Source: a virus
Taxonomy: Duplodnaviria; Caudoviricetes
Virus record (IMG/VR): IMGVR_UViG_3300025009_000102
Location: 1 to 63,571 of that record
Length of the DNA: 63,571 bases
Direction: 5' to 3' (one strand)
Shown here one piece after another: positions 9,990 to 56,548 of the stretch. The notes below the pieces were generated by a model. It searched no databases. It worked only from the letters and a program-made list of their open reading frames with translations, and was not told the DNA's origin. The position numbers and the translations under genes are program-made. Numbering within the stretch: the first letter of the stretch is position 1; each line of letters opens with the position of its first letter.

Positions 9990-9997
9990 GGTAAAAC

Positions 9998-10420: not shown

Positions 10421-10447
10421 TAAAAACAAATAATTAGGAGCGTGAAA

Positions 10448-11302: not shown

Positions 11303-11814
11303 TAAGACTCGCCGTAGATCCATCCTTGGAGCATACAGGGTTCGCCGTTGTCGATGACGGCGAACCTGGTGGGTCGGTTATATCGTGCGGTGTTATTGTC
11401 CCTGGGAAACATAAAGGTTTGATCACTATCGAGCGGGCGATGAGGTTGCATGAGATCGCCCTGAATCTCGATAATGTTCTGTATCACTTCTCTATCGAGG
11501 AGATCTTCGCGGAGGTTGCGGTCGGGGCAATTGACCAGGCCTCTGCCTTTTCACTGTTCAGTGTAGGTGGGATGCTGATAGGTCTGTCAACAGGCAGGGG
11601 AATACCGCTCACACTGATCACCCCCAGGGAGATTAAGACCAGGGTGTTCGGTAGAAGTGATGCCAAGAAGAAGGAGATTATGGCCTGGGCGCGTCGAACG
11701 TGGCCCAATGCACCCTTCCCTACACGTGTGGGTGATTTTGAGCATATAGCGGACGCTATGGCCATCTATGAGGCTGGTCTGAAAAAGGGTAACTCAAGGA
11801 GTGTTCAGTTATGA
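11299..11814 (+). CDS. RuvC-like Holliday junction resolvase
   Basis: LAVDPSL..TG; E; P.EIK; K.EI; H.ADAMAI. Confidence 0.85.
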   Translation: MIRLAVDPSLEHTGFAVVDDGEPGGSVISCGVIVPGKHKGLITIERAMRLHEIALNLDNVLYHFSIEEIFAEVAVGAIDQASAFSLFSVGGMLIGLSTGRGIPLTLITPREIKTRVFGRSDAKKKEIMAWARRTWPNAPFPTRVGDFEHIADAMAIYEAGLKKGNSRSVQL

Positions 11815-12104
11815 GATTTGAAACTATTTTTTATACATCTGCTGGGACACAGGTTGCTGGGAGGGAAAATTTGGTTAAACTGGAGAAGATACAGCGGATC
11901 AAGGCCGTCCTCGACAGTAAACTTAAAACCAGTAATTTGATATCAACTGACCATGCCGCCAGGCTTATTGTGCAGGATGCCGAAAGTGGCGGTGAGCAAT
12001 TTCGGGATATTCAACTCACTATAGACCGAGAGTTTGCATACCTTGAAAGGTTTCTGGATGGCCGGGTGATGAGCGCTGACAGTTCCGGGATGGAGGGGAA
12101 ATGA
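11811..12104 (+). CDS. hypothetical protein
   Basis: ATGA-coupled ORF. Confidence 0.65.
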   Translation: MRFETIFYTSAGTQVAGRENLVKLEKIQRIKAVLDSKLKTSNLISTDHAARLIVQDAESGGEQFRDIQLTIDREFAYLERFLDGRVMSADSSGMEGK

Positions 12105-12313
12105 AAACGCTTGACCACCAAACGTGCTACGATATCGTCTCTAAAATTGCCGAAACTATCGGTGTCACCCTGCCGGGAATCGACCAGGAGGTTGATGAAC
12201 ACTTCGTCAGGTTTATTAAACACACGATATGCGGGAGCGTCGGGCGTGCTTTCCGTAACAGCAATGAGTATATACGGCTGGCGTCAATTATCAACGGGAT
12301 GCCGAAGTCGTGA
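12101..12313 (+). CDS. hypothetical protein
   Basis: SD GGAGG, ATGA overlap. Confidence 0.6.
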   Translation: MKTLDHQTCYDIVSKIAETIGVTLPGIDQEVDEHFVRFIKHTICGSVGRAFRNSNEYIRLASIINGMPKS

Positions 12314-23100: not shown

Positions 23101-26100
23101 TACCCAGCTCCATCACCAACGAACATACTAAGCCTTTGGAGGATCTTCTCATTATCAGCCGGGGTGATCGGCTTATCGAATGCAACCACAACTCCACGTG
23201 CGTTAGGTCCGCCGCGCACTACCGTACCGGGGTTTTTCGCTGAATGCTCCATGGCGTCGTTCAGGTTCTCAAACTTACCATTCTTGATAACCTTGCCTGA
23301 CGACTCATTCACAACCCGGAACATCTGCTCTTCAACTGCAGCCTTCGACGACATGGCGAATTGGTTCGCCCTGAACCACGGCACCGCATCTTGTTTGAAG
23401 ATATACTGGACAGCTCTTGCGTACATCGACACGTTACTAACCGGGATTTCCCTATTCACCCTGGCCGGGATCAGGTGGCTAATGTTGTTAGGGTTAACAC
23501 CACCGGCATACGCCCCCTCCCCTGGGGTAACGTATGCGATATGGACACCAACCTTATGGGCGAGGGTGTCGGCGTCGTCCTGAACGATAATCCTCCTTGC
23601 CTCGTCGGTGAACATGCGCTTGACCATCGGCGATGCACCAAGGATCTCATGAGAAAGTTTCGTGCTTGGTACTGCCTCCCAGGTAATAACCTGGATATTC
23701 TTTTGAATAAAGTGACTGAAGTCTGCAGCTGACTTGTTGGCGTTCTCTGTCGCTTTCTCGCTCGAAAGATTAAGGGCGTTCTTTCTCCAGATATCCCTAT
23801 GCTTGGCCAGACCTTCTTTCTCAGTTGGGAGAACAAACCTACCCTTATCGTCAACCGATGCAAGCCCAGCGCCTATCGACTCCGCCCACGTATCCGCCTT
23901 CACCTGTGGGTCTTCATACCGGGCCTTCATGGCGCTCCATATTGCCGCCTGCACCTGGAACGGGGTCCAGTCAGTTCCATCCTTTTCATTCATCCTGTCG
24001 GCGAGCCTGACTATTTCTTTTTCTGAAAAAGAATATTTTCCAGTTCCTTTATCGTTCGATGCGACATTCAGATCATACCCGAATGCCCGGAGCATCCATA
24101 GGTCAATGGTTGCCTTCCTACCCATCTCTCGAAGGATGTTGCGGTCCAGTGTCATCTTTGCCACGGAGCCAGGTTTCGACACAATTATTTCGTGTAGCAA
24201 GTTGAGGTAGAACGAGTTGGTCTTCCTCCCCTCGTAAGGGAACGGCTTGTTGTCGTACAGGGCACCAATAGCTTTTTTATCCTGCTCTGCGGTCTTGACC
24301 TTGAAGTCCTCCCTGGGAGTGCCAGAGGTGTACTGAATCCAGGCGCTTATTGCAAACGTCGTATTGGTGTCAACCCTTGCCTGCGGTGAGTATATGGCGA
24401 TCAGCTGAATGAACTTCTCGGCCTTGGCTACGTCTCCCTGCATCAGCTCCATAATTGCGTCTGCAGACTTCTCGTACCAGTACCGACCAACCTTTCCCTC
24501 ATCGACCAGGGAAGCAACGGTATCGCGCATCTTAACCAGATCTTCCGGGGTTTTCACCCAGCTCGGGGCACCCTTGTATTGCCCACCGGCAGTCGTTTCC
24601 GGCTCCCAGTCTTTGTAGTTATCGAGTGTGTCGTCGGCGAAAAGCGGATGTTTCGTGAGGATATCGTAGCCCTCCTTGAGGAGTGGCCTGACCTTCTCAC
24701 CAAACTCCTTGACCATCTCGACGGACCATGTGGCGATATCGCGAACACCCCGCTCAAAGTACGCCCCACCGACAACGATCAGGTCGGACAGTGCTTCTGG
24801 GTCAACACCGGAGTTCAATTGGCCACGTTTCCCTTTCATCCTGGCGCGGGCCTTGTCAACCTTGGCTTTGGTGAATATCTTGTTCCCGCTGAATTCTTCC
24901 TCGTTATTGTTGTTGACTTTCTCTTCTCGGTTTATTAAAGTACTTACTGAAAGAGAACCCTTTTCAGAGGAGGTTGATATGGAAGTGTTTTTAGAATCCG
25001 GTAATGATACGTTTGTTCTGGATACGAAATCAAAGAGAGTTTTTTTGGTGGACGGTGACAGTCGATCTGAGGTCACAGATCCGGCAACTAAGCTTAAAAT
25101 CTTGGCAGAGTCGTTCGCAAGGTCGGAAAGTCCAGACCGGAAGTCGTCGACCGACTGATCACTTTTTCCCCTCGCCAACGAGGCGGCGGCAGCATAGCCA
25201 CGGTCCATGAGATTATTCAGCATGTCGAGCGTGGCTGTCTTTGTTTCTTCGTCAAAATTGTCGTGAGTCAAATGGCCAATGACTTTGTAGAGGCTATGGA
25301 GTTTCTTCTTAGCCTCAATCATTGGTTCGGTATTGAGCTGAAGCTCATAGATATGCCCGTTTTCTGCCCTCATAGTGAGCTGCATATCCTGGTAACCGCC
25401 GATACTTTCCTGGTCATACCTGTTGTTCCATGACAGGACATCGTCCTGCTTCTGGATCTTACTGAAAGCCTCCTTCATGGACTTGTAATCCGGGTACACC
25501 ACGGTTGTAGCAACGATATCGTCGACCATGGAAACATTTCCGCCGTATTTGTTCTTCAGCTTTAACTCGGCGGTTTCCCTCTTTTTCAATCCGTCGGCAA
25601 AAGGACGAAGCTTCACCTTGCCATTGGTTTCATTGGCGAGTTGAGTCACCCTTTCATTAATTCCACCGACCGCCTCCCGCGCATTCTGATACAGGGTATC
25701 CATGTTTTTACTGACAGACTTACTCTGGCGGATCTTCGAAACCGCCTCCACCTCTGCGTGTTTTGCCCCACGGGATGATAATTCTCTGAGGGTGGTATTT
25801 CCATCAATAACCTTCATGGTTCCGTCGTCCCTGACAACAACTTTAAGCGGGCTTCTCTTTGGACCAGCACCCTCTTTCGCCGCATCCATGCGGGTTTGAG
25901 CTGAACTTAGTTTCTCCTGACTTATCTCTTTGTTGATAGGGATAAGCTTCGAAATCTCTACGGTTTGACTATTGGGGTTTTTCTCAAAGTAGTCACTGGA
26001 GGAGCTATCCTCCCGACTCTTCAGTTTAACCTCAGTATCGTTCTCTGGCATTTGCTCCAGTATCGACGCAGACTCCTGGGCGGATCTCCATGGTCGTGAG

Positions 26101-27695
26101 TCAGTTAATAGCGAGGCGAGGTTGTCGCCTATATGCCGAACCGGTTCGTTATTCTCTGGGGTAGACTCATCGACTGGCCTAGGGGCATCCTGGGAGAATG
26201 CGAATTCGAGGTCTTCCTGGCGAGTCTTCCTGGCTATTTCCGCCTGGTTGCTCGCCTCGATATCCCTCTCGATATCAGTGAGTCCCGCTTCCTGGAACAC
26301 CTTGGCGGAGTCGTATGCTGTCCCGCCAGGCGGATCTCCCCCAGGGCCTTCTGGGGTGGCATCGGGCTTACGCACTGCTGACTTGAATTTGGCGATAGCG
26401 TCGTCCAGGCTCTCTGATTCGAGTATTCCTGCGGACGGAGGGGCCGATTCCCCCGGCGGAGGGGTAGGAGGTTGAACCACTTGCGCACCAGGCTGTACCT
26501 GGATTGGAGTCTTGAACGCCTGCGCTGCAGCTGGCAGTTCCGTGACCAGACCACCGGCACCACCAAGAGTTTCCATAGCAACTTCACCGAGTTGAAAGTC
26601 ACCCTTGGCAACCTGTCCAGCCGCTTCAGATGCTGGCTCTTCCAACAATTGCGTTCCGGCGCTCGCGGCGACAGCGCCAAGCTTACTCGGTATTGACCGG
26701 GCCTTGAGCATTTGTTTTGCAAGATCCCGCACTGCTTCTTTGGTTGCACCGGCACCAAGCTGTTGAGTCGCTTCTGAGATCGCCTTGTTGTACGGCTTGG
26801 CAAGAAGTCGTCCTGCAGCAAGGTTCATCGCCGTCGAAACTGCTGCTGTGGCAGTGGCTTTACTCCTCGCTTTCGATATGGTTTCTTCAATGAATTCATC
26901 ATCGGCCAGGAGAGAGATGACGTTATCCTCCGTAGGCTCAAGCTGTCGCTTATTCAACTCTGCAGCGATCATCCCTTTGAATTCAGATCCAGCCTCAATA
27001 CCCCACTGTCCGAGGAAGCTACCAACTGCAGCACCAGCCTTCTTACCAGCACCACCGAGTCCAAATGGCGTTCCGGCAACAGCGCCAACTGCGCTACCAG
27101 CGACCGTACCGGCCACACCAGGAATCATGTTTGCGGCCTGCTCTGCAGTAAGGTATGCAACACCCTTCGGGTTACCAAATGTTTGACCGGCAACAAACTT
27201 CACTGTATCCCACAGCGCTTTGCTCTTACCGGTAAGACCTTCGGCTTTCTCCCAGCTCTTGGTCAGCTCGCCCGCCTCAACCTGTGCTTCCTCAAGTTCC
27301 GGCGGGGTGTAGTCCTTCGACTCCTCCCTGATCCCCTTGGCGAGAATGGCGGCAGTGTTTGCGTCGATCTCCCCAGTGGCAACGTCGTCCATAAGCCTTT
27401 CGGCATCGGCGAGGTTGCGGCCACCCTTCTTGACCAGCTCCCACATATTCTCAAGAAAACCACGGCTCTCCCCCTCGATCTGGGTTTCAATCATCTCGCG
27501 GGTGCTTTGGCCGAACATGCTGTCAAAGTTCTGCTGCAGGGAGAGTTTTTCTTCCTCCTCAGCCTGGGAGTAGGAAGGGTCGCGGACTACCTCTCTCCAG
27601 AAATCGTTGGCGTACTCGGCGAGAACCAGGTTGCGCTGTTCCTCGTTTGCGGACTGGAATTCGGGGAGGGCGATTACATCTTGAAGTGGTATCAT
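17142..27695 (-). CDS. Giant polyvalent (ejected virion) protein: ParB-like, RelA/SpoT-like, helical DUF7178-like, ART-like, LPD23+zincin, LPD38-like domains
   Basis: 3517-aa ORF; VIDGNTT; LKK...DIV...GYQD...ELQLNT...H.LY; IWRKTGW..W.YEIDDS; HEVQH; C-terminal LPD38-like region. Confidence 0.9.
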   Translation of the reverse strand: MIPLQDVIALPEFQSANEEQRNLVLAEYANDFWREVVRDPSYSQAEEEEKLSLQQNFDSMFGQSTREMIETQIEGESRGFLENMWELVKKGGRNLADAERLMDDVATGEIDANTAAILAKGIREESKDYTPPELEEAQVEAGELTKSWEKAEGLTGKSKALWDTVKFVAGQTFGNPKGVAYLTAEQAANMIPGVAGTVAGSAVGAVAGTPFGLGGAGKKAGAAVGSFLGQWGIEAGSEFKGMIAAELNKRQLEPTEDNVISLLADDEFIEETISKARSKATATAAVSTAMNLAAGRLLAKPYNKAISEATQQLGAGATKEAVRDLAKQMLKARSIPSKLGAVAASAGTQLLEEPASEAAGQVAKGDFQLGEVAMETLGGAGGLVTELPAAAQAFKTPIQVQPGAQVVQPPTPPPGESAPPSAGILESESLDDAIAKFKSAVRKPDATPEGPGGDPPGGTAYDSAKVFQEAGLTDIERDIEASNQAEIARKTRQEDLEFAFSQDAPRPVDESTPENNEPVRHIGDNLASLLTDSRPWRSAQESASILEQMPENDTEVKLKSREDSSSSDYFEKNPNSQTVEISKLIPINKEISQEKLSSAQTRMDAAKEGAGPKRSPLKVVVRDDGTMKVIDGNTTLRELSSRGAKHAEVEAVSKIRQSKSVSKNMDTLYQNAREAVGGINERVTQLANETNGKVKLRPFADGLKKRETAELKLKNKYGGNVSMVDDIVATTVVYPDYKSMKEAFSKIQKQDDVLSWNNRYDQESIGGYQDMQLTMRAENGHIYELQLNTEPMIEAKKKLHSLYKVIGHLTHDNFDEETKTATLDMLNNLMDRGYAAAASLARGKSDQSVDDFRSGLSDLANDSAKILSLVAGSVTSDRLSPSTKKTLFDFVSRTNVSLPDSKNTSISTSSEKGSLSVSTLINREEKVNNNNEEEFSGNKIFTKAKVDKARARMKGKRGQLNSGVDPEALSDLIVVGGAYFERGVRDIATWSVEMVKEFGEKVRPLLKEGYDILTKHPLFADDTLDNYKDWEPETTAGGQYKGAPSWVKTPEDLVKMRDTVASLVDEGKVGRYWYEKSADAIMELMQGDVAKAEKFIQLIAIYSPQARVDTNTTFAISAWIQYTSGTPREDFKVKTAEQDKKAIGALYDNKPFPYEGRKTNSFYLNLLHEIIVSKPGSVAKMTLDRNILREMGRKATIDLWMLRAFGYDLNVASNDKGTGKYSFSEKEIVRLADRMNEKDGTDWTPFQVQAAIWSAMKARYEDPQVKADTWAESIGAGLASVDDKGRFVLPTEKEGLAKHRDIWRKNALNLSSEKATENANKSAADFSHFIQKNIQVITWEAVPSTKLSHEILGASPMVKRMFTDEARRIIVQDDADTLAHKVGVHIAYVTPGEGAYAGGVNPNNISHLIPARVNREIPVSNVSMYARAVQYIFKQDAVPWFRANQFAMSSKAAVEEQMFRVVNESSGKVIKNGKFENLNDAMEHSAKNPGTVVRGGPNARGVVVAFDKPITPADNEKILQRLSMFVGDGAGYTRTGENEITIINFRNDETRIPYIEDSIFLGNVQSFIDNNLDSLAIKDANSIWAQGEYGYDHNWNEDPEGQAVINHRSLAGQPDLQSWIRDRRADFEKVLERYSGKQLTQREREAEAIAKFTGEDIGSRVPLDSDNAIGFGGGVVTSEESFSPAPTPKKSITAYKLFRTSSKSPGQIFPLFIGKNTPTPIGRWIQAEFIPTKGYATRPGWHAGVLPTAPHLMKKDGTMQADRVWAEVEISADRNYQGEADASSTRDIRERIPSGGFYRFKTNKMQGGAWIIGGAMKVNRLLSADEVSDIVSRGEPKFQMAQLTLPVDQNGNVTLAHWSKISGLKTIDPAKYSTGIAGAEARRKAGDPENWVDRSYYGVVGGGYVKEVGLGQYRYDVTVKAENLYDFQADPDGLMAQAAQERAGNPFADKMNIYERLIRDSGYTGYWSTRNNQVIAAVFAPLKAGVATEQAQPGIKLQQTKRGGVSQTPTEAFGRLLGSLNGDQAGVAKRLVSSGKVVLMSNDEAMKELEGMGYSLAEMGEGNRPIGIEVPGKTILVPENIPDGELWGSLRHAIGTHIGRMMQGNAEFQMIKKTIMRRADEQSRTGEAIRRAMAQVPEDTTPENYSEEVLAYMVSTSEDIGLVRRIIAMIKNFITRFGVSYKIFNEQDFKALADLAIRREARGNTETFFSEDDLVKFQMAGSQSALASTTKEDIDAGIAYLTEKYPGKYEFVGRTGQFIVAVKNGFVPKNERISTLVEAKAMKEDGIDRSEIWRKTGWWEMIPGEWQYEIDDSEGKVDVNQYGKLEPGEAISISKLYKHPTIYSLYPQLKTVKVTPIKAKPGQLGAWDFEKRILLLNQSLSPDEIQSTVIHEVQHIIQDIENFARGGSFETQYGKIQIKAEMLIRRIVLINGALTEIANKSKFGQLSQEERATYSSLRQIRDRLAVEHIQLTDDPVGAGFRDYRLLTGEVSARLVQARQKLSQAERRSIPPWQHMEAMLRGEGLLKFGEDPQDVLLTKYDPSIPGSIIHAPSQPQSISFLDRIKGQFDFQGWFDEFATWLYNQDKAIERVQQGIGPQPTSRDYSTIRGLVGKRLAAEVKRFDIDVYQPLIQFIVDSKLKLEDVQEFLHAEHAPERNLQMRRANARGYIDALMAQMTDKEREQWQGELGDIQDDFVMNSRALDEKRDNLVSMLERMGGVIAGQRAQIDQIAADLQARQWTPAEIAKGTDVYWQKRLDNMYYRLGKRESIVNEWDSRKGKLSGMTDAEAKKVVKQWAGHTAMNEAARKIRAINEEALRIAYSSGDLTDEEYTNISSRYKYHVPLFREEVDEGKAPTGRSGRGPLGKPPQAQVAAGSTKAVVNILAHIVDRYQASLSRRLKLEAERALYDMVTANPNEELWSIAQMAKAPYHDHEGNIRFYPDQQIDLRYQTYVKVDGVKHIIEVAKDNPQAVRFMEALNRQTTDPGPVLKASRVITRILARLNTSLTPEFALPNFTRDLQTAFVNMSGTEASGLQMKVFGNIRHAIAGIYREERGKPSGQWGAIYKDAAAHGVVMGWAQSYEDVKQLAEQIEYDIATKEGGHKVRENFKRLGNFIESVNLSVENGVRVATYKALVDRGTDKLQAGRIASNLTIDFTKHGTAGPTINAAWMFANAGIQGNIRMMQAVSSSAKVQKIVTGIVGLGIAVNLLGAAAGGDDEDGESRYDKLKRTNPGLFERNMIFFVPGGDGLHVRFPMAYGYNIFFKFGDEIATILRGGNPVEAGLRWGTTVMNNLNPLAAGTLLQTVMPTVLDPMAQIIENKAWHGGNLMPPLNPWMNQPDSERYYKDVNPVSREVTKWLNEMTGGSKFREGMISVSPESIEMVLETIAGGAGRVVKDTLNLPFAIAEGDVSIKNVPIIRRFAGVMPESIDRRVYSENRDEMKTFVLELKNATREERPSLVREPVYKLVGKFQDTEKRLDELHKMKKQIEANGKDAGKIDERINAIQVEFNKRYNQITGRD
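24913..24941 (+). promoter_or_regulatory. Antisense sigma70 promoter inside the giant gene
   Basis: TTGACT-17 bp-TAAAGT, about 40 bp upstream of SD AGGAGGT. Confidence 0.6.
24979..25158 (+). CDS. Nested antisense 59-aa gene (candidate immunity protein for the RelA/SpoT domain)
   Basis: SD AGGAGGT 24968-24974, ATG 24979, own promoter; MEVFLESGNDTFVLDTKSKRVFLVDGDSRSEV... Confidence 0.6.
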   Translation: MEVFLESGNDTFVLDTKSKRVFLVDGDSRSEVTDPATKLKILAESFARSESPDRKSSTD

Positions 27696-48632: not shown

Positions 48633-48833
48633 TTACGGTTTCTCGCTTGCCTGTCCTGGTGCTTTTTCGGGGCCGACCTTCGACCAGGGGGAAATATCCG
48701 ATACGTTCTCGCCATTGATGCTCCTCCATTCAGTCTGACCAGGCACTTCCGTGATCATGCCGCAATCCACGCACTTAAATAGACTGCCCCCAGGGCCGCG
48801 CCTAACAACACTCACCTTATTGTGAATACACAT
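48633..48833 (-). CDS. Small Cys-containing hypothetical protein
   Basis: TGATG overlap with the terL stop. Confidence 0.5.
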   Translation of the reverse strand: MCIHNKVSVVRRGPGGSLFKCVDCGMITEVPGQTEWRSINGENVSDISPWSKVGPEKAPGQASEKP

Positions 48834-50152
48834 CAGTAACCTACCCCGCTGTCCAATGGCCGTGAATATGCGGCCCCTCTGTTCGGCGCTCGGTACTTCA
48901 TGCGCCCCCTTTCCTCATTACTGAACTGCTCGACATTCAGGGACAAATACCTGAACATGTCAGCGCCGTTCGAAAACTCGTCATGGATAGGACCGGTTTC
49001 TGCCCCAGTCTGCTTGCTCACGTGCCTCCTGTAGCGCTTTAAGCACTCGACCAGCCTGGTACACCCCTTGTCGATATAAACGCGAGGGAAGGTCATCCTG
49101 GCGATCCTGATGCCCTCTTCTATGGATGCCTCTACTATCTCATCCCTGGTCGGTACATCCCAGCCGAGGGCGTGTAGGATATCGGCGCTGGACTTACCAT
49201 GGCTCTTCATGTCACCGGCAAAGCCGTCATGCGGCAACCATAGCCGCCCCCAATTATAGTGCTTCTCCTTCATCTCGACACTGTACGAGTCCCATGTCCT
49301 GCGGTTATCCTCGATATAATCGATAACACGGATCTCCGATGCCCTGCGCTGTACGAAGCCGATGGCCTGCGTGTCGTTGTAGCCGATGTCGACCACCAGG
49401 TGGACCTTGAGGAACGGGTCATACGGAACGTTGCATATCCTGCCCTGGCGCTCCATCTCGGCTACCTGTTTGTAGTAGATGGCCCCGGCAACTGCAGGCC
49501 GACATAGGCCTAACCATATGTTGTCGTAGTCGTCCGGGCGCTTGAGCAGGCACTCGATCCGGGATCTCTCGGATGTAGCCGTCAGGAACGGGTTGTCCCG
49601 GTAGTCAACATGAACCACCTCGTATTCTTCCGGGTCCGCCTCGGTGACGAACCGCTTGTATGTCTCGTCAGTCTCAAGTTCAGGGTTGAACGACACCCAG
49701 ATCTCAGAACCTTCTTTCCGGATAGTCGGTATCAGTACATCCCAGGAGCGCTTACTGACGGCATGCGCCTCCTCAACCCAGACGATGTCGAAACCCTCGT
49801 ATGATTTCAGGGAGTGGATTGTGTGCTGCGCCAGGCCCTCGAAGACGAACAGCGTGCCGTTCTGCCCGATGATCCTGTCCCGCTGGATAGTGTAGAACCA
49901 TGACAGATCAAGAGCTGCTATCTGGTCCTTCAGAAGCTGGTATACCGATTCGTCGATGGAGTCTTGGACTTCACGGGTGCATAGGATACGTTTCGGCGAG
50001 GCATACCCGGTAACGACCAGGGCGCGAGCGAATGACCAGGACTTACCACTGGACCGTCCGCCCTTGGCTACCTTGTAGCGTTTTGGCTTGAAGAGGAAAT
50101 GAAACTTCTCAGGAATATCGAGAGAGAGTCTTGAGTCATATTGCTTGCCCAT
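48833..50152 (-). CDS. terL: Terminase large subunit (PBSX-type)
   Basis: KGGRSSGKS Walker A, WVEEA Walker B, SFNP, DIGYND, LPHD, HDEFSNGADMFRY. Confidence 0.95.
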   Translation of the reverse strand: MGKQYDSRLSLDIPEKFHFLFKPKRYKVAKGGRSSGKSWSFARALVVTGYASPKRILCTREVQDSIDESVYQLLKDQIAALDLSWFYTIQRDRIIGQNGTLFVFEGLAQHTIHSLKSYEGFDIVWVEEAHAVSKRSWDVLIPTIRKEGSEIWVSFNPELETDETYKRFVTEADPEEYEVVHVDYRDNPFLTATSERSRIECLLKRPDDYDNIWLGLCRPAVAGAIYYKQVAEMERQGRICNVPYDPFLKVHLVVDIGYNDTQAIGFVQRRASEIRVIDYIEDNRRTWDSYSVEMKEKHYNWGRLWLPHDGFAGDMKSHGKSSADILHALGWDVPTRDEIVEASIEEGIRIARMTFPRVYIDKGCTRLVECLKRYRRHVSKQTGAETGPIHDEFSNGADMFRYLSLNVEQFSNEERGRMKYRAPNRGAAYSRPLDSGVGY

Positions 50153-50169
50153 AGCAGAAAACATAATTA

Positions 50170-50202
50170 TTGCACGGTAACAGGGCAAGTGTTACCGTGC
50201 AA
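50170..50202. repeat. 13-bp perfect inverted repeat upstream of terL
   Basis: TTGCACGGTAACA-7-TGTTACCGTGCAA. Confidence 0.8.
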
Positions 50203-50219
50203 GAAACCTGTGGTGATTC

Positions 50220-50648
50220 TTATTTAATGGTGTACCCGAGGGCAGACGCCGGGAAGTAATCCCTGGTAAGCTTGCCGTTGTGAAACATCGGTGAAATTAC
50301 AGAGACGCATGGCTCAAGTGAGCAATGATCTATATACCACCTGACTACCGTGTAATTTTGCGTTTGCATTGGAATGGAGCAACCCTCCGGATAAGTTTGC
50401 CGAAGTTTTTGGAGAAGATCCTCAGCCTTCCTGCGCCTGGCTTTCAGGTCTTCCATGTTCTTTATTCGTTCGGCCCTCTCGTCGGCCTTGTCCTTTTCAA
50501 GTTGCTCATCCATCCAGTTCTCTTCCATTCTCTCGTCTACCTGCCGGTGGATCTTTGCCTGCAGTTTGAAGTAGAACCATGATACGATGCCAAACAACAT
50601 GACGGAAAACAGTACCGCCAATCCTACCCATTCCTCAATACTCATCAC
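50220..50648 (-). CDS. Membrane-anchored hypothetical protein
   Basis: N-terminal TM + coiled coil. Confidence 0.7.
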   Translation of the reverse strand: MMSIEEWVGLAVLFSVMLFGIVSWFYFKLQAKIHRQVDERMEENWMDEQLEKDKADERAERIKNMEDLKARRRKAEDLLQKLRQTYPEGCSIPMQTQNYTVVRWYIDHCSLEPCVSVISPMFHNGKLTRDYFPASALGYTIK

Positions 50649-50935
50649 CCACCCCCGTAGAGTTCTTTTCTGACCATGAGCATTGCGGCCAGGTTTATTA
50701 CATCAATCCAATCGCCAGTCCCAACATTATCGCGCAACCTCCGATACAGCGCGGGGTCAATTGCCGGATCTTGCCGTAGCCAACCCCCCTCGCCCTCCTC
50801 ACGCTTCTCATTGAGACGCATCGTCATCTGCTTATACACGACCCTGCGTAACATATCCGAAGCGCTCTCGTCCGAGATCTCTCTGGTTATCATGTCGATC
50901 AGGTCACTGTGTACAACTTTCATCCGCTCAGGCAC
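50645..50935 (-). CDS. Small helical protein (possible MazG-like fold)
   Basis: M..RL.EKR..G.GGW...GD.IDV.NLA.M. Confidence 0.6.
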   Translation of the reverse strand: MPERMKVVHSDLIDMITREISDESASDMLRRVVYKQMTMRLNEKREEGEGGWLRQDPAIDPALYRRLRDNVGTGDWIDVINLAAMLMVRKELYGGG

Positions 50936-50936
50936 G

Positions 50937-51164
50937 CTATCTCTCCTTTTTGTGTAGTTGAATGACTACGCTGAACATCAGGCGCGGGAATACCCGAACG
51001 CACGAGTATGAATACCCAAACATCCTGGCTATGTCGCCCTTGTTCCTTCGCCTCTTCTCCACCCTGGACTTGATCATGTCACTCCGTCGCCGCGCATACA
51101 TGATCGAATCGTAGGCTATCCTTGCCACCTGTCTTGCTGTGCGTACATCGTCTTCGTTTACCAT
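50937..51164 (-). CDS. hypothetical protein
   Basis: Operon packing. Confidence 0.55.
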   Translation of the reverse strand: MVNEDDVRTARQVARIAYDSIMYARRRSDMIKSRVEKRRRNKGDIARMFGYSYSCVRVFPRLMFSVVIQLHKKER

Positions 51165-51460
51165 TTGCCAGACTCCGCCCAGATCAATTCAAGCATATGC
51201 CACTGCCTGGGTGTCAATGGACAATATGCGTGATCGATGATAATGTTTTTCACTGCTATGCCACACCACCGGAATTCCTCTATCCATGCGGGTGACACGA
51301 TGTTGAGATCACTCCTACCGATGTTTTCAGCCAGGTGTTTAGGGTAATCAAGTTGTCCATTGGCCCAAACATAATAAGCACCGATAGGAGCCGCGAGCAT
51401 CTGGTGAGTAGTGTTGCCCACCTGACGGCCATTAATCATCCTTGTCATGCCACCAACCAC
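51158..51460 (-). CDS. Mini-protein resembling a degenerate terminase ATPase domain
   Basis: GRQVGNTT (Walker A-like, K>N) and G....IIIDHA (Walker B-like, E>H). Confidence 0.6.
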   Translation of the reverse strand: MVGGMTRMINGRQVGNTTHQMLAAPIGAYYVWANGQLDYPKHLAENIGRSDLNIVSPAWIEEFRWCGIAVKNIIIDHAYCPLTPRQWHMLELIWAESGKW

Positions 51461-51538
51461 CGTTATAAAAACAGGTCAAATAAATAATAACTGCAACCAT
51501 GGCGATGTTCGCCAGGGCAATGACGACTAAGGCTCCAA

Positions 51539-51757
51539 TCATCTAACTACCTCCTCAATTTTCATAAAGACTGTCAGATCTGCCCATACACCATTGACTA
51601 ATTGGAACTGGTCGTGATCGAATCGACGGCCATCGATGGTCATCCCGCCAGGGAATATTTCGATGGTCTTGCAGTCAACACACACAATCGTCCCGTTTGG
51701 AGCTGTGAAGCAATATCTCATGCCAGTGATACCCTTCATTCTATTTCCCTCCAGCAC
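51539..51757 (-). CDS. hypothetical protein
   Basis: Operon packing. Confidence 0.55.
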   Translation of the reverse strand: MLEGNRMKGITGMRYCFTAPNGTIVCVDCKTIEIFPGGMTIDGRRFDHDQFQLVNGVWADLTVFMKIEEVVR

Positions 51758-52008
51758 TTATTACATGCCAACTTGTTATCCATGCAGGCCCCACATGGCG
51801 GAGATCTGAAGCACGTACACCCTTGGACAGGAGGCAACTCGATAATGCCGTCACAGCCATCCAGGCCGCACACATCGCCCTCTTCTTTACCGAGTGGATC
51901 GTCAAGGATCACCGCCAGGCTCACCCTGACATATCCTTCTGGCACCGCCTTGTTCTCCTCAAGCACCCGTGCCGCCCGCCTCAATGATTCGATAGTCAGT
52001 CCTGTCAT
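51736..52008 (-). CDS. Cys-rich small protein
   Basis: C...GC.G...CTC..SPPCGAC...C..C. Confidence 0.65.
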   Translation of the reverse strand: MTGLTIESLRRAARVLEENKAVPEGYVRVSLAVILDDPLGKEEGDVCGLDGCDGIIELPPVQGCTCFRSPPCGACMDNKLACNKCWREIE

Positions 52009-52490
52009 TCATTCATCTCCTTGAGCGCACGCATAGCGATTTCTTCCTGGACCTCGGCGAGCCACCGATCAGTGGCCCTCAGCTGAACGTGGTCCGAGAT
52101 GGGGAAACTATCATGCCGGTGTTCCCATGCATAATGAAGGGCGTCGTCAATACCGGTCTGCCTCATAATACCAGTACCATATATCATCGCCGAACGCATG
52201 GCATGGTGCATGGCATCTCTGACATCGTCCCGCTCATCCTCGACGACTGGTCCATACTTACCCAACCTGCGAAAGGCGATTGTGTCTGACGCTTTACGGT
52301 CGCCGAGGTTACTCATGATGAGTGACGGTTCAGCACGCCTGAGCATCTTCCTGGCCGACTCTTCAGCTACGGCTGCATACGGATTTTCCAGGTGATTAAT
52401 ACGGCGCTGTAGGGCGAGGAGTTCAACCTGCATCCTCGATAGGCTGCCGCTCAATTGCCTGACACGTTTCTTCCACTTGTTGTAATTCAT
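52005..52490 (-). CDS. 161-aa mosaic of capsid-, portal- and terminase-like peptides
   Basis: ML..AEP..I...G...DTI.FRR...Y matches the own MCP N-terminus; AMIYGTGI resembles portal LGTGI; DD..DA..A and DDALHYA resemble the TerL motif. Confidence 0.7.
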   Translation of the reverse strand: MNYNKWKKRVRQLSGSLSRMQVELLALQRRINHLENPYAAVAEESARKMLRRAEPSLIMSNLGDRKASDTIAFRRLGKYGPVVEDERDDVRDAMHHAMRSAMIYGTGIMRQTGIDDALHYAWEHRHDSFPISDHVQLRATDRWLAEVQEEIAMRALKEMNE

Positions 52491-52687
52491 CGATTCATGT
52501 CCCTTAACATGTAATGAAGGGAGAGTGTCGGGAAGATGAAGTTGCCACCGCCCTCCACCCAGGATAGGATCTCCAGCTCTTCTGCTGTCCATGGGTTGGT
52601 AAGCCATAGCATTTTGATCTTCTTGACGATGACATTATGAATTCTGCTCTCCCAGTAGTGCTGCTCTGTCATGCCATTATATTTCAT
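52487..52687 (-). CDS. hypothetical protein
   Basis: ATGA-coupled to the next gene. Confidence 0.55.
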   Translation of the reverse strand: MKYNGMTEQHYWESRIHNVIVKKIKMLWLTNPWTAEELEILSWVEGGGNFIFPTLSLHYMLRDMNR

Positions 52688-52733
52688 TTGGAAAATCCTG
52701 CACAGAAAAGTGATCGGAAGGTAACGGAAAGCG

Positions 52734-53105
52734 TTACTTTATGGATATGTCGTCATCAATATAGCCGTGTTTGCCAGTACCGCCTTTGCGCACCACAACT
52801 ATCGGGTATATTGATTTGTCGGTAGTGTCGGCAACTAATACGGTGCAATCTTCATGGTGGTATTCCCTGAGTCCTATCCAGTCGTTGCGGCTGTTTAGTA
52901 CCATGACCATCTTGCCGTCCCAGGTCATGTTCTCAAAGAATACACGAGATCCGCACTTGTGGCAGATGGTGTATTGATCGCTCTCCTCGGCAGGCATGCC
53001 GCTCGGCATTACCAGGTTCTTATAATTCATATCCGAGCTGTAGTTCGGCCTATTGCGCCACCAGCCAGCCAGGCCTCCGCAGTGTGCATGGGATATTCTG
53101 ATCAT
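52734..53105 (-). CDS. hypothetical protein (Cys/His motifs)
   Basis: ATGA overlap. Confidence 0.6.
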   Translation of the reverse strand: MIRISHAHCGGLAGWWRNRPNYSSDMNYKNLVMPSGMPAEESDQYTICHKCGSRVFFENMTWDGKMVMVLNSRNDWIGLREYHHEDCTVLVADTTDKSIYPIVVVRKGGTGKHGYIDDDISIK

Positions 53106-53449
53106 TTATTCCTATCCAGTGGGTTGAAGTGGAATTTGGGGTGAGTCTTGAGTTGACCCTCAACAGCAACGAAGTTAAAAAGATCCACCAGTAGCTCAAA
53201 GTTACCGGTTTCCCTATAGGCGTCAAACTTACCCTGCATGTAGTCCATAAGGCTCTCGTGATCCCAGTTGCTTCCGTGGCGAATACCTCCCATGATCAGC
53301 CTGGGCCTTGCCAGCGATACGATCTCTTCCAGCTTACTGGTCATTGCGCGGATCTCAGCGCCCATAACCACGGGATCTCGCTTCTTGACTGAGCATATAC
53401 CCATTCTACTGTACATCCTGTCACGGATTATATCGTGGTCACTCTTCAT
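53102..53449 (-). CDS. Conserved-looking helical phage protein
   Basis: RLIMG..R.G...Y..TGN.E.LVD..N. Confidence 0.65.
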   Translation of the reverse strand: MKSDHDIIRDRMYSRMGICSVKKRDPVVMGAEIRAMTSKLEEIVSLARPRLIMGGIRHGSNWDHESLMDYMQGKFDAYRETGNFELLVDLFNFVAVEGQLKTHPKFHFNPLDRNK

Positions 53450-53655
53450 TCAACGATCTCCAGGTTTTCAAGTGGCTCTACGCCATAGACCGCAGGCCTG
53501 CCGTTGCGCAGCTCATGGTTATTACACCTGTCCGCTGCATCAGCACACCTTACCCTGTTTCGATGGCACTCGATAATGGTTTTACTGGCTACGTTCAAGA
53601 CAGCAAAGCGATGGTAACTCTCGATTCTTACCCAGTCGCACTTGGCTACTTTCAT
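53446..53655 (-). CDS. hypothetical protein
   Basis: SD GGAGGT. Confidence 0.6.
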   Translation of the reverse strand: MKVAKCDWVRIESYHRFAVLNVASKTIIECHRNRVRCADAADRCNNHELRNGRPAVYGVEPLENLEIVE

Positions 53656-53748
53656 GATTACCTCCAGGGAATTGTCGCCGCCCGGCGAAGTATTGATCTG
53701 CCGGGCGGCTCTTAATGACCGTTGCTGCTCTTTGTCGCGTGGTCGTTT

Positions 53749-53888
53749 CGTTAACTTTGGGAGACGGGCGGTTTGCCGCTTCCTGCAGGCTGATCAGGCC
53801 AAAGATTCGGTTCGCATTCTCCTCCAGGGGCGCTGCAGTGTACCGTCTGGGGTGTTTTAGCTTAAACTACCGTCTCACAAAGATAACG
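53749..53888 (-). ncRNA. tRNA-like structured RNA with expanded central domain
   Basis: GAGACGG/CCGTCTC-CCA stem, TA, D-arm GTTT..AAAC, 3' GCGG-CAAA-CCGC hairpin; outer helix CGTTA.CTTTG/CAAAG.TAACG. Confidence 0.55.
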
Positions 53889-53978
53889 ATTGCCGGTCTT
53901 TCCCGGCTGTCAGGCCTTGCCACATGAGGTTTACTTTTTTACGTGTTGTGTCCCTCCAACATCAGTCACGGGTCCAGG

Positions 53979-54053
53979 TGGTTGCGGGGGCGGTAATCGA
54001 ACCCGCCATGTCAAGCTTATGAGACTTGTGCCTTGCCGCTCGGCCTCCCCGCA
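53979..54053 (-). tRNA. tRNA with CAT anticodon (elongator Met or Ile2), CCA encoded
   Basis: TGCGGGG/CCCCGCA acceptor stem, CAAGT-CTCATAA-GCTTG anticodon arm, GTTCGA T-loop, ACCA end. Confidence 0.85.
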
Positions 54054-54076
54054 TTCAGAATTACACAATAACACAT

Positions 54077-54292
54077 TCAAGGGATCTTTACACAGGAATT
54101 ATCCACCTTATGGATACGATTCCTCTCGATTGCCAACTGGCTACCATTCGGCAGGACCAGGCAGGCACACTCGCCACGTTTGCCGTCGAAGAACCAGCCA
54201 CGGAAGTTCGCCTCATAAAGAACCTCCGGGTCGTAGAGATCTTCGAACGATACGGTATCGCCAACCGATAGCCAGTCCATCACACACCTCAC
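54077..54292 (-). CDS. hypothetical protein
   Basis: GTGA overlap. Confidence 0.55.
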   Translation of the reverse strand: MRCVMDWLSVGDTVSFEDLYDPEVLYEANFRGWFFDGKRGECACLVLPNGSQLAIERNRIHKVDNSCVKIP

Positions 54293-54498
54293 TTGATAGA
54301 AACCAAGAAACCGCCCCTCAACATACCCTCTGCATACCAGCGATGTGGTTTAGGATAGTGCGGACCTTCGAGGTACACCTTACCATCAACCATCGGTCCA
54401 CCGAATGGGCCAGGCTGAAACACCGAGATTTTCTCGCCGTGAGCGATGGCATCTTTGACTTCTTTCTTTGTTTTAAAATTGACTGATGTGTATGCCAT
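54289..54498 (-). CDS. Small conserved-looking phage protein
   Basis: SD GGAGG; NFKTKK..K...EGPHYP.PH.WYA. Confidence 0.75.
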   Translation of the reverse strand: MAYTSVNFKTKKEVKDAIAHGEKISVFQPGPFGGPMVDGKVYLEGPHYPKPHRWYAEGMLRGGFLVSIK

Positions 54499-54541
54499 GA
54501 TGTCCTCCAGGTTGGGTTGATCTGACTTACCTTACAAATCA

Positions 54542-54570
54542 ACCTTACACCCTGGCTGGATTGATGTCAA
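54542..54570 (-). promoter_or_regulatory. Strong sigma70-type promoter (early class)
   Basis: TTGACA-17-TAAGGT; shares GGGTGTAAGGT with the promoter at 61340. Confidence 0.75.
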
Positions 54571-54573
54571 GAA

Positions 54574-54858
54574 TTATTTTTTGTATGGTTTTGGGACATA
54601 TACCAGCTCCTTCTTCAAGCCGCAAGCTGGGCAACTACGCTCATATACCCGGAATGGACCTATATCGTCTACCCAGTCACGGATTTCTGCCAGGTTAAGA
54701 TCCTCATGCCTTCCAGTCCAGCCACACGCCGTGCAATGCTCAATGCGATCTGGCTGTATGACCCACTGTTCCGGTCGCTTCATGGCCCCACAGTCGACAC
54801 ATACCGCAGTGAAACCATGGAACGATATCGCGCATGTCCTCTCGTGTTTACAGCTCAT
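54574..54858 (-). CDS. Zn-finger hypothetical protein
   Basis: Multiple CxxC. Confidence 0.6.
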   Translation of the reverse strand: MSCKHERTCAISFHGFTAVCVDCGAMKRPEQWVIQPDRIEHCTACGWTGRHEDLNLAEIRDWVDDIGPFRVYERSCPACGLKKELVYVPKPYKK

Positions 54859-55268
54859 GGCCCACAGTCCTCCCAGATCTCGATTACCGACAACTCAGCC
54901 AGGCCGTCACTGTTCTGCATCACCCGGAAGCCATTACCCTCGTGCGTGTCGTCGCAGTCCGCACAGATATACTCGCACGCTATTTCGAGGTCACCGAATT
55001 TCTCGATTGCCTTGTCAATTTCCTTTCTCAGTTTTGACAGTCTCACTGATATTCTCCTTGCGTTTTTCGCTTTCCAGCTTCATTGCCTCGACCGCCTGTT
55101 TCCTGGTTGTAAAATATACCTTCCCGTTTAGCCCAAATGGGAACATGCGCTTTCTCGTTCTCTTGAGATAGGCAATCCAGAAAGTAAGAAGATCATCTGA
55201 CATTGCGTGAATAAGCGACTCCACCACGCTCTTACCGTCGCTTCGTATCGGTCGCTCAATTACATCCT

Positions 55269-55964
55269 TCATTCATCGTCCTCCACAAGCATGGTCGTTG
55301 ACCGCCCGTCGTCGTCCTTATTTCGATTCGACGGCACCAGGTTGATGTCGATCACACTGTGCCGCTGTTTACCGTCGCCGTCCTTATCGGTGATTCCATA
55401 GACCGCCCGCTCCTTGTCGATCAGCCGTGCCTGCGTCTCGACGAGCTTCTTAATCATATCAACCTGCCCCCCTAAAGATATCACCTGCCGATAGAGATCA
55501 TTCAGCTTGTCATAATTAACATCCGGGTCCTTCATCATCTCGCCCAGCGCTACTAACTCGTCGCTGTTGTCATATACCAAAGCCAGGCGGTCCATAAGCT
55601 TCTCGCACAAACCCCTCGACCGTCTAATATCCCGCCTATTACCAGAGATGATATCTGCGGCACAGAGAGCTGATGCGTCAAACACGGCCTTATCGCGCTG
55701 GTTCTTGGTCATAGTTACAAGCGCTCGCTCCGCAACTGTCACTATCGCCTCACGCTCTGTTACTATCGCTTCAGCCTTTGCGATGATCCTTGCCCTCATA
55801 TCCCGCTTGACCCCGCGCTTATTCATCTCCTTAATAAGTGCGGGGCGAGAGCATTTAACACCGGTTCGCTCGGTATATGCTCTCACAATTTGATCTGGCG
55901 ATAGTATACCTGCGACCCATTCAGCCTCCATGCTATCATAGTCAATTCTGCGCTTAGGAGCCAT
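55269..55964 (-). CDS. terS: Terminase small subunit
   Basis: IDY..MEAEW.AG..S...I.K....G..RD...RI HTH, helical body, ER..YGI. Confidence 0.7.
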   Translation of the reverse strand: MAPKRRIDYDSMEAEWVAGILSPDQIVRAYTERTGVKCSRPALIKEMNKRGVKRDMRARIIAKAEAIVTEREAIVTVAERALVTMTKNQRDKAVFDASALCAADIISGNRRDIRRSRGLCEKLMDRLALVYDNSDELVALGEMMKDPDVNYDKLNDLYRQVISLGGQVDMIKKLVETQARLIDKERAVYGITDKDGDGKQRHSVIDINLVPSNRNKDDDGRSTTMLVEDDE

Positions 55965-56548
55965 TACAACCACCCGTGGTGCTGATATTTACAAAACACG
56001 TCGAGGACCAGCGAAAGACGATTAATTTCGTCAAGTGGAGGTATAGACAGAGGAATAACCCCAGCCTCTAAACACGCATTCTCTACCAACAGATCTTGCT
56101 GCTCATTTCCAATGGAGTTAAAGAGTAGACAGCGACGGACAACCATTCCATTGGCGTTAATCTGTGATGCATACATACCAACCTGGCCTATACCGGCAAC
56201 GACAGACCTCACATCATTGGCGTCCTTGGCCTCTATAACAGAGATCGAGCCGTCAATATGGAAGATCACGATATCTGCCCTCCCATAGATCAGCTTATAT
56301 TCCACTATAACCTTATCGTCAGGGTGGCACGGTATGCGCGTCTCTCCGCCGTCACGCCGAATAAGATTCAGAAAAACTTTAACTAAAAATGATTCGCTAT
56401 GGACGAAAGACTCACTGGCGGCGTGGACCCTAGACAATTCTCTCATTAGCATGAGAAAACATGCCACCTCACTATCAGACGGATTGCTCGGGTCCATCTT
56501 GGAGAAATCTACCTTCTCCCAGTCAACATCCTTTCGCCTCGCTGCCAT
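55964..56548 (-). CDS. PD-(D/E)XK nuclease-like protein
   Basis: E...GRADIV...VIEAK...GIGQV..YA. Confidence 0.65.
   Translation of the reverse strand: MAARRKDVDWEKVDFSKMDPSNPSDSEVACFLMLMRELSRVHAASESFVHSESFLVKVFLNLIRRDGGETRIPCHPDDKVIVEYKLIYGRADIVIFHIDGSISVIEAKDANDVRSVVAGIGQVGMYASQINANGMVVRRCLLFNSIGNEQQDLLVENACLEAGVIPLSIPPLDEINRLSLVLDVFCKYQHHGWL

Follow-up and report, generated by a model that had tools for sequence, protein, structure and literature searches.

We identified one gene of a very large protein family in the window, a stretch of 63,571 nucleotides that makes up the tailed-phage record IMGVR_UViG_3300025009_000102, where it lies inside the 5.1-kb interval between the genes for the two terminase subunits (Table 1). 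The small-subunit gene is the upstream boundary of this interval. In the ORF listing of the window, the longest reading frame at the site is a 100-aa ORF with a GTG start on the minus strand (51158..51460), and both its coordinates and the two motif strings reported in it from a sequence-only reading were exact. A 93-aa form that begins at the ATG at 51439 is present in a public protein collection (P0001, 100% identity) and is most likely the true length of the gene. This ATG overlaps the end of the upstream 36-aa ORF by 8 nt, and the stop codon overlaps the following ORF at its start (ATGGTAA). Because start and stop both overlap neighboring ORFs, we regard this as a genuine gene that is part of an operon on one strand, and from this arrangement it is predicted to be translationally coupled to its upstream and downstream neighbors.

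Table 1. Features of the family gene and its surroundings in the window
Feature	Position	Strand	Description
Family gene	51158..51439	-	93-aa mini RecA/P-loop-like protein (predicted)
Motif 1, GRQVGNTT	51407..51430	-	Walker-A-like, capping the N-terminus of helix 1; residues 11-18 in the 100-aa ORF
Motif 2, GIAVKNIIIDHA	51227..51262	-	Residues 67-78 of the 100-aa ORF; Walker-B-like strand ending D-H-A
Hydrophobic mini-ORF, 36 aa (MIGALVVIALANIAMVAVIIYLTCFYNGGWWHDKDD)	51432..51542	-	Upstream; its stop overlaps the ATG of the family gene; preceded by GAGGAGG
75-aa ORF	50937..51164	-	Downstream; its ATG overlaps the stop of the family gene; HTH_28 below threshold only (E 0.048)
Large terminase subunit (TerL)	48833..50188	-	Pfam Terminase_3, 8.2e-40; phrog_3717, 1.2e-59; 970 bp downstream of the family gene
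Small terminase subunit (TerS)	55269..55973	-	phrog_1206 terminase small subunit, 2.2e-28

Among 1.84 billion cluster representatives, phmmer detected 1034 proteins related at E<=1e-3, most of them between 90 and 110 aa in length, and 218 reached E<=1e-10. A profile search gave 403 proteins at E<=1e-5, all of them unnamed or "hypothetical" and none with a Pfam domain. No relative was named, and there was no match in Pfam, PHROGs, NCBIfam, or PADLOC. The query alone matched no Pfam family at E<=1 and no PHROG at E<=0.1; when 119 members were compared with PHROGs, no PHROG was matched by more than three of them, and the query and four members had no PADLOC match at E<=0.1. Four different members were each searched against 50,697 GenBank phage records and gave no match, and a profile search of PDB sequences returned one chance match only (E 0.96). 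A full-text literature search found no description of the family, which does not prove that none exists. The carriers are mainly uncultured tailed phages, with a few prophages. Judged by these searches, this is a very large and so far unnamed family of stand-alone proteins of about 90 aa.

Both motifs coincide with the best-conserved columns of the family (residue numbers here are those of the 100-aa ORF, and column counts are from 150 homologs). In motif 1, R12 is found in 131 of 150 sequences, G15 in 146, T17 in 147, and T18 in 114, with the position of the Walker A Lys (residue 16) being variable: Arg in 61, Lys in 19, Thr in 17, Glu in 9, Gln in 8, and Ala in 7, the Asn of our protein occurring in fewer than 7. 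In motif 2, D76 is completely conserved, as are R49 and D51 elsewhere in the protein, and H77 (149/150), G67 (139/150), and A78 (131/150) are nearly so; W32 (148) and Y39 (147) are also among the conserved columns. The residue after the Walker B Asp is His in 149 sequences and never Glu. An R/W-G pair occurs a few residues before hhhD[EH], which is the terminase-type form of the motif. The P-loop NTPase signatures themselves, GxxxxGK[ST] with a conserved Lys and hhhhD with a catalytic Glu or Asp, are both lacking. The seemingly dead residues are the norm of the family and not decay in one phage, and the proposal that Asn and His replaced a functional Lys and Glu in this protein fails, since the His is fixed and the Lys position is free. 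Given the size of the family and the position of the motifs on its best-conserved columns, the sequences indicate that this is far more than a chance feature.

AlphaFold2 predicted a three-stranded alpha/beta mini-domain for the 93-aa form with high confidence (pLDDT 91.9, pTM 0.82), with helices at residues 9-16, 31-39, 50-54, and 77-90 and strands at 22-24, 46-48, and 66-68 (93-aa numbering), the last being the strand of motif 2. A second member with a longer N-terminus had the same elements, its first 10 residues being disordered (pLDDT 87.1). The loop is not a canonical P-loop because no strand precedes it, and helix 1, in either model. Many homologs have only four to six residues before G-x-T-T, and of the 135 homologs whose motif could be placed, 39 have six or fewer ahead of the motif Gly. 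The best structural matches among the 50 listed were RecA-like domains of SF1/SF2 helicases (modest Z, <=6.7), with the model aligning to helicase domain 1 from the P-loop through the DExH box (e.g. NS3 residues 195-308); no terminase was among these 50. Matches in a structure atlas were to ResIII, SNF2, and DEAD proteins (TM by query 0.64-0.68). Foldseek found no PDB match at E<=1e-3, and in BFVD its best match was an unnamed 137-aa viral protein (F5B409, E 6.7e-5, TMq 0.72), followed by uncharacterized phage proteins. The nearest named clusters in a language-model comparison of two members were ResIII, Podovirus_Gp16, and Terminase_6N, all below 0.9. Both motifs lie at the sites that Walker A and Walker B take in this predicted RecA/P-loop-like fold, as had been proposed from the sequence, and the proposed structure search returned RecA-like domains of helicases and, among the matches listed, none of terminases. 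Neither of the two outcomes named in the sequence-only reading as refuting it, a predicted fold unlike P-loop/RecA domains or loss of the motifs in homologs, was seen.

The resemblance to the TerL ATPase lies in the Walker A motif with Arg at -4 and in the hhhD-x-A Walker B strand preceded by Gly. An Arg at -4 from the Lys position is also found in the TerL of the window (GGRSSGKS, its Walker B counterpart being IVWVEEA), in T4 gp17 (SRQLGKTT), and in T4 vs.8 (GGRQSGKS). Unlike the TerL ATPase domain of about 250 aa, however, the family protein has about 90 aa and three strands with no strand 1; it is without the Lys and the Glu, without a nuclease domain, and without a match in Pfam. Neither the Pfam terminase models (Terminase_3, 6N, and GpA_ATPase) nor the TerL families of PHROGs matched the query, and hhalign comparisons of the family with T4 gp17 (P 0.15-0.21) and with the window TerL (P 0.049-0.16) were not significant. 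One further comparison, with a profile from five diverse TerL N-domains, is weak because these were poorly aligned (one of them, from locus L023, was misaligned).

The vs.8 protein of T4 has been described as an uncharacterized ATPase-like protein that is homologous to the terminase ATPase domain of this phage and toxic together with EcAvs2 (PMC13601566). It is labeled phrog 1488 in one GenBank record, and the T4 copy has 219 aa. When the family profile was compared with eight vs.8 homologs, hhalign gave a score of 24.8 (P 0.0029) over 76 columns; the alignment runs from GGRQSGK[ST] to IIDEP with both motifs in register and sets the D-H of the family onto the D-E of vs.8. None of 200 column shuffles reached this score (mean 11.9, sd 2.6, max 21.0), and reversed profiles scored 10.3 and 11.9. 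In a control run in which each profile was built from T4 and the same five T4-like phages, vs.8 scored 25.4 (P 0.0024, 76 columns), the gp17 ATPase 15.4 (24 columns, Walker A only), Tk 16.6, UvsW 15.2, and Dda 16.9, although the vs.8 profile had a Neff of 2.6 against 1.3-1.7 for the controls, a greater diversity that favors it. Among the five ATPase families compared, a full-length match that keeps both motifs in register was obtained with vs.8 alone. When HMMs of the five T4 families were scored against 219 members and their shuffles, all mean scores were negative and the shift was largest for vs.8 (Mann-Whitney p 4e-8), in a test with almost no power because the sequences are not independent.

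Like the family, vs.8 is a small stand-alone phage protein, and the two are collinear through [GN]GRQxG[KN][ST], a helix, a strand ending S/x-N, a Y-[AP]-K helix, [FW]-R/C-G, and hhhD[EH]. They differ in that vs.8 has roughly double the length, is restricted to T4-like phages (1010 GenBank phage records), and keeps both the Lys and the Glu (GGRQ[ST]GK[ST], II[DE]EP) that the family is without. On this sequence comparison, we give kinship of the family with vs.8 and TerL about an even chance; homology is not established, the HH probability of the vs.8 match being only 10.8-12.3%. The suggestion that the protein is a degenerate miniature of a terminase-type ATPase is partly supported, by the motif sites and the vs.8 match, with no terminase match in Pfam or among the 50 structural matches listed.

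The genomic distribution of the family is that of a solitary gene. In an all-versus-all BLASTP comparison of ORFs of at least 40 aa from 25 loci, the family gene was the only ORF cluster common to all 25, and the next clusters spanned three; no conserved neighbor or partner gene was found beyond three closely related loci. Annotation covered 20 large ORFs in 16 of the loci, and the contig ends close to the gene in several cases. In six of the 25 loci (the window, L005, L015, L023, L009, and L006) a TerL gene on the same strand follows no more than 5.2 kb downstream, at a distance of 22 bp to 5.2 kb in the five loci other than the window. We see in this at most a modest enrichment and no functional linkage to terminase. 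An integrase directly follows the family gene in two loci (L024 and L025). The genes seen at other loci include helicases, with SNF2/ResIII next to the family gene in L012 and L013, as well as DUF932, RlaP, a PAPS-reductase-like gene, RtcB, and a primase. Across unrelated phages, the family gene moves by itself.

Taken together, the gene probably encodes a minimal RecA/ASCE-like, non-catalytic binding module of an accessory, host-interaction type, an interpretation that in our estimate is as apt to be right as wrong. The modeled fold is a helix followed by three parallel strand-helix units; it retains the sites of a Walker A (R-x-x-G-x-T-T) and a Walker B (hhhD-H-A) of terminase type, and the Walker A Lys, the catalytic Glu, and the strand that normally leads into a P-loop are missing throughout the family. 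Because these three are missing, we infer that the proteins are not canonical ATPases. The module would most probably derive, by descent or by convergence, from the core between Walker A and Walker B in ATPases of the vs.8 and large-terminase type. Its invariant polar residues (R12, G15, T17/T18, Q20, R49, D51, D76, and H77) would make up a conserved binding site, either for another protein or for a ligand that carries phosphate. The solitary, mobile distribution in accessory regions suggests a host-interaction or anti-defense protein and not a part of the packaging machine.

The invariance of R49, D51, D76, and H77 could equally reflect an unconventional catalytic site, which would contradict the term non-catalytic. 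The protein could then be a small enzyme or nucleotide binder in which G-x-T-T and R12 hold phosphate and D76-H77 act or coordinate a metal, for example a nucleotide sponge or a hydrolase acting on signaling or precursor nucleotides. In the model, D76, H77, R49, D51, R12, G15, and T17 would lie at the strand ends and helix N-terminus of a RecA-like nucleotide site, but R49 and D51 precede strand 3 and, as judged from the topology, are probably at the opposite edge of the sheet from D76 and H77. On one viral contig, a MazG/PRA-PH pyrophosphohydrolase domain is joined in frame to the family domain in a protein of 193 aa (L018:7701-8282; PF01503 5e-6, PF03819 6.6e-5), which speaks more for nucleotide chemistry than for the binding of a protein, and one other member is fused to DUF3850. 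Against this, these were the only two fusions to recognizable domains from 20 longer members or longest-ORF loci and three longer proteins (217-247 aa, without Pfam domains) found in a search for longer forms, and no known nucleotide-binding family in Pfam, NCBIfam, or PDB sequences is similar. We consider this explanation rather unlikely. The structural matches could also be caused by a generic minimal Rossmann/RecA-like domain that is unrelated to terminase, perhaps a remnant or mimic of helicase domain 1 that regulates a phage or host helicase, with the look of the motifs being coincidental. The SF1/SF2 helicase RecA-like domain 1 (e.g. flavivirus NS3, alphavirus nsP2, INO80, and XPB) is among the closest known systems, two loci have the gene next to helicases, and the P-loop kinase Tk was matched on the hhhDEA strand alone (P 0.061). 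These helicases, however, have two RecA-like domains and motifs I-VI, in contrast to the single 93-aa domain of the family, and the T4 helicase profiles UvsW (P 0.24) and Dda (P 0.11) aligned over irrelevant regions only and without the motifs, whereas vs.8 aligned end to end. The conserved Arg at -4 is common to vs.8, gp17, and the window TerL and is not known to be a general feature of helicase motif I. We hold such an origin to be possible but unlikely.

In the sequence-only reading, the protein was a catalytically dead TerL mimic and a decoy. As a decoy for terminase-sensing Avs-type sensors, it would fill their pocket while leaving them untriggered, which would shield the real terminase. 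SeAvs3 is reported to recognize residues of the TerL active site as well as bound ATP, and EcAvs2 to use a bridging ATP on the ATP of the terminase; the authors raise the possibility that the small TerL-like activators are anti-defense proteins. The terminase-type form of the motifs with its Arg, the weak but specific match to vs.8, and the accessory-gene distribution are consistent with such a role. However, vs.8 and two further small phage proteins, Ksap1 (74 aa, from a Dhillonvirus) and Ksap2, whose function is given as unknown (PMC11564622), are described as activating Avs2 and not blocking it, and the anti-Avs proteins of the EVADES preprint, set against the family by description only, comprise a DNA ligase and a DprA-like protein and no mimics. 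The residues and the ATP that the sensors are reported to read are exactly those missing from the family, which is moreover found alongside three unrelated TerL types (Terminase_3, gpA, and Terminase_6). The Ksap proteins are likewise small alpha/beta phage accessory proteins, reported to have a terminase-ATPase-like central sheet with flanking helices; they are restricted to narrow phage taxa, whereas the family is very broad, and the 74-aa SECphi18 ORF between methyltransferase and phosphatase genes, which we took as Ksap1 from the description in the paper, showed no similarity to the family (P 0.41). A decoy appears improbable. The same holds for a more specific form, in which inert three-stranded miniatures of the terminase/vs.8 core, mobile in uncultured phages, would engage Avs1-3 and Upx as non-activating competitors by offering the surface that is sensed but not the ATP, Lys, and Glu with which the sensors lock on and oligomerize; we think it very doubtful.

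Small terminase-ATPase-like phage proteins (vs.8, Ksap1, and Ksap2) have been noticed recently as Avs2 triggers, with their own function left open in print. The present family would widen this picture, being far larger (1034 representative clusters), carried mainly by uncultured phages, and uniformly without the catalytic residues. Were the reading as inert miniatures true, the protein would be the first recognized member of an abundant class of more than 1000 sequence clusters. It is compact, at about 90 aa, with a confident model and eight near-invariant polar residues. Even without a link to terminase, a family this common merits a name and a profile, since it is otherwise annotated as nothing.

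Six neighboring small ORFs scanned against Pfam and PHROGs had no terminase-related match, and the idea that the interval between the terminase genes is a cassette of mimics has no support. Elsewhere in the window, a 3517-aa ORF (17142-27695) was considered as an N4-type virion RNA polymerase and dropped; its PHROGs matches were to giant-protein families without known function and to a weak DarB-like segment.

In the window, the gene lies within the terS-terL interval (50189-55268), a 5.1-kb run of about 17 small ORFs on the same strand plus a tRNA, which looks like an accessory-gene island. The ORF and both of its motif strings have exactly the position and sequence assigned to them in the sequence-only reading. 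A 93-aa form starting at the ATG at 51439 is present in a public protein collection; this ATG overlaps the final 8 nt of the upstream 36-aa ORF, and at its other end the family gene's stop codon shares bases with the start ATG of the ORF that follows. The 63.6-kb IMG/VR virus record is complete-looking and contains one copy of the gene.

Features of the window (all on the minus strand)
Feature	Position	Remarks
100-aa ORF (family gene)	51158..51460	GTG start; ORF listing
GRQVGNTT (Walker-A-like)	residues 11-18 of 100-aa ORF	
GIAVKNIIIDHA (Walker-B-like)	residues 67-78 of 100-aa ORF	
36-aa strongly hydrophobic ORF	51432-51542	GAGGAGG ribosome-binding site; translationally coupled to family gene
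Small terminase	55269-55973	phrog_1206
Large terminase	48833-50188	Pfam Terminase_3
tRNA-Met, anticodon CAT	53979-54053	in terS-terL interval among small ORFs
142-aa ORF	50220-50648	just upstream of terL; N-terminal hydrophobic segment, charged coiled region
Hairpin	50170-50202	13-bp stem, 6 GC pairs, then T-rich tail
3517-aa ORF	17142-27695	giant-protein PHROGs of unknown function only

A word-indexed protein search returned nothing beyond the query protein itself, and tblastn against 50,697 GenBank phage records gave no meaningful match with the query and none with three further family members. An exhaustive phmmer search over 1.84 billion cluster representatives recovered 1034 relatives at E ≤ 1e-3, of which 218 pass E ≤ 1e-10; identity to the query is 51-54% for the best, and lengths are mostly 90-110 aa. 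The gene is real and is one member of a huge conserved family. With a profile search, 403 proteins were recovered at E ≤ 1e-5, every one unnamed or "hypothetical" and none with a Pfam domain; Burkholderia ambifaria is the source of one, and a few Burkholderiales genomes and MAG contigs carry the gene as well. In the ESM Atlas, the query's nearest neighbours are three unnamed clusters, mostly viral, with 98, 637 and 65 members (scores 0.95-0.96). The query matched neither Pfam nor PHROGs, no PHROG was common to more than 3 of 119 members, and the family had no match in NCBIfam, PADLOC or PDB sequences. Given four family libraries without a match and no description in the literature searched, the family appears to be undescribed.

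Among the best 150 hits aligned with the query, Arg 49 and Asp 51 are invariant, as is Asp 76, and His 77 is kept in 149 (numbering of the 100-aa ORF for motif residues). Trp 32 (148), Thr 17 and Tyr 39 (147 each), Gly 15 (146), Gly 67 (139), Gln 20 (133), Arg 12 and Ala 78 (131 each) and Thr 18 (114) are strongly conserved, so that both motifs persist among homologs in degenerate form. The position of the Walker A lysine varies (Arg in 61 homologs, Lys in 19, Thr in 17, Glu in 9, Gln in 8, Ala in 7, and others), the Asn of the query being a rare variant, and in none of the aligned homologs is the Walker-B-like Asp followed by Glu. Because the lysine position is free and the glutamate occurs in no homolog, the replacement of Lys by Asn and Glu by His, previously read as inactivating, describes the whole family and is not an event in this phage.

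AlphaFold2 with 119 sequences gave a confident model (pLDDT 91.9, pTM 0.82) with helices at 9-16, 31-39, 50-54 and 77-90 and strands at 22-24, 46-48 and 66-68 of the 93-aa form, in which G-x-T-T caps helix 1 and D-H ends strand 3. The model contains no strand ahead of the loop. P0047, a homolog with a longer hydrophobic N-terminus, is modelled with the same elements and with ten disordered residues at its start (pLDDT 87.1), and in many members, among them longest ORFs taken from contigs, just 4-6 residues precede the motif. Since the N-termini are this short and strand 1 is absent family-wide, the domain is confidently predicted to be a three-stranded miniature of plausibly RecA-like type, not a canonical P-loop domain. 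Foldseek found no PDB match at E ≤ 1e-3; the top match, 3hh1_B (E 0.24), was closely followed by Ffh and a designed P-loop fold. Among the 50 structural matches listed, 5 clearly have other folds and no title names a terminase. The sequence-only reading is supported in part: a RecA-like fold and the homology of the motifs are plausible, and the degeneracy is genuine but shared by the whole family.

We compared 24 loci beyond the window (18 viral, 6 from genomes), some incompletely annotated. All 25 have just one ORF in common, the family gene, the 36-aa hydrophobic ORF being below the length limit of this comparison; the next clusters reach three closely related contigs. In six loci a same-strand TerL follows the gene, 22 bp to 5.2 kb downstream, and is of unrelated types: Terminase_3 in the window, gpA in L005, Terminase_6 in L015, and phrog_2 in L006, L009 and L023. 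An integrase follows the gene in L024 and L025, and neighbours elsewhere include helicases, DUF932, RlaP, a PAPS-reductase-like gene, RtcB or primase. L023, a Hydrogenophaga MAG contig, has a small terminase and a portal distantly homologous to those in the window (TerS 27% identity) and a TerL of a different type; its terS-terL gap (region 9882-12245) is 130 bp, with the family gene 1.5 kb upstream of terS. In all this the gene behaves like a solitary mobile accessory gene with a tendency to sit among small genes preceding the packaging module, and unlike a terminase cofactor. Fused forms are uncommon. P0100 joins the family domain to DUF3850, P0060 is a tandem duplication in which the first copy is longer and divergent, and in three longer proteins no additional domain was recognised. 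The ResIII/Helicase_C helicase adjoining the family gene in L012 (8548-11172, plus strand) has its first RecA domain interrupted by an intein (Intein_splicing, PT-HINT).

PMC13601566 (Nat Commun 2026) describes T4 vs.8 as an uncharacterised ATPase-like protein, toxic with EcAvs2, that has homology and Walker motifs in common with the T4 terminase ATPase domain and is predicted in the same sensor pocket as terminase. The same text gives Ksap1 and Ksap2 (PMC11564622) a similar sheet-and-helix arrangement. An hhalign comparison of the family with a profile of T4 vs.8 and seven diverged homologs scored 24.8 over 76 aligned columns (P 0.0029, probability 10.8%), pairing GGRQSGK[ST] of vs.8 with NGRQVGNT and IIDEP with IIDHA; between these, the second strand (…SN/…AN), Y-A-K/Y-P-K and R-G/C-G are in register. 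With 200 column-shuffled vs.8 alignments the score averaged 11.9 (sd 2.6) and never rose above 21.0, short of the observed value; reversed profiles scored 10.3 and 11.9. In a panel of profiles each built from T4 and the same five T4-like phages, vs.8 scored 25.4 over 76 columns, helped by having the most diverse profile (Neff 2.6 vs 1.3-1.7), against 15.4 for the gp17 ATPase domain (24 columns, SRQLGKTT only), 16.6 for thymidine kinase (Walker B strand only), and 15.2 for UvsW and 16.9 for Dda (irrelevant regions). With equally shallow profiles, the published vs.8-gp17 relationship reached only P 4e-4. The family showed no significant similarity to the window's own TerL in profile comparison and none to the SECphi18 ORF taken as Ksap1; the HMM-versus-sequence test had little power. 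Language-model leads for two members were to ResIII, Podovirus_Gp16 and Terminase_6N clusters, every score below 0.9. The family has about an even chance of being akin to the vs.8/terminase ATPase lineage.

The family protein would be unable to work as a canonical ATPase, and its eight near-invariant polar residues may mark a conserved binding site; we give roughly one chance in two to the reading that it serves as an accessory module without catalysis. A helicase-type mimic with no relation to terminases is rather unlikely. We consider marginally less likely still an unconventional enzyme or nucleotide binder acting through Asp 76/His 77 and the helix cap, for which the main hint is the fusion to a MazG/PRA-PH pyrophosphohydrolase domain in L018 (7701-8282, plus strand).

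The proposal that the protein is an Avs decoy is improbable. In PMC13601566 the role of vs.8, Ksap1 and Ksap2 is an open question, with anti-defence one possibility; however, these small TerL-like proteins in print activate Avs2 and do not block it, and what the EVADES preprint lists as anti-Avs proteins are one ligase and one DprA-like protein. The accompanying idea of a "cassette of mimics" receives no support, since the six neighbouring small ORFs scanned lack any terminase-related signal in Pfam or PHROGs. As a very common, unnamed phage family with a confidently predicted fold, the family would bear on the current open question of small TerL-like proteins.

Elsewhere in the window, the 3517-aa ORF matches phrog_14770 (2.3e-119), phrog_616 and phrog_10691 and has a weak DarB-like antirestriction segment at residues 596-1008; its PHROG matches do not support an N4-type virion RNA polymerase. 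The longest TerL ORF starts at a TTG that the hairpin overlaps; translation of TerL may really begin at an ATG further downstream, and the hairpin may set the block of small ORFs apart from terL. The 142-aa ORF has weak spanin/holin-like PHROG matches (E about 3e-3), and its position upstream of terL is odd for a lysis-type gene.
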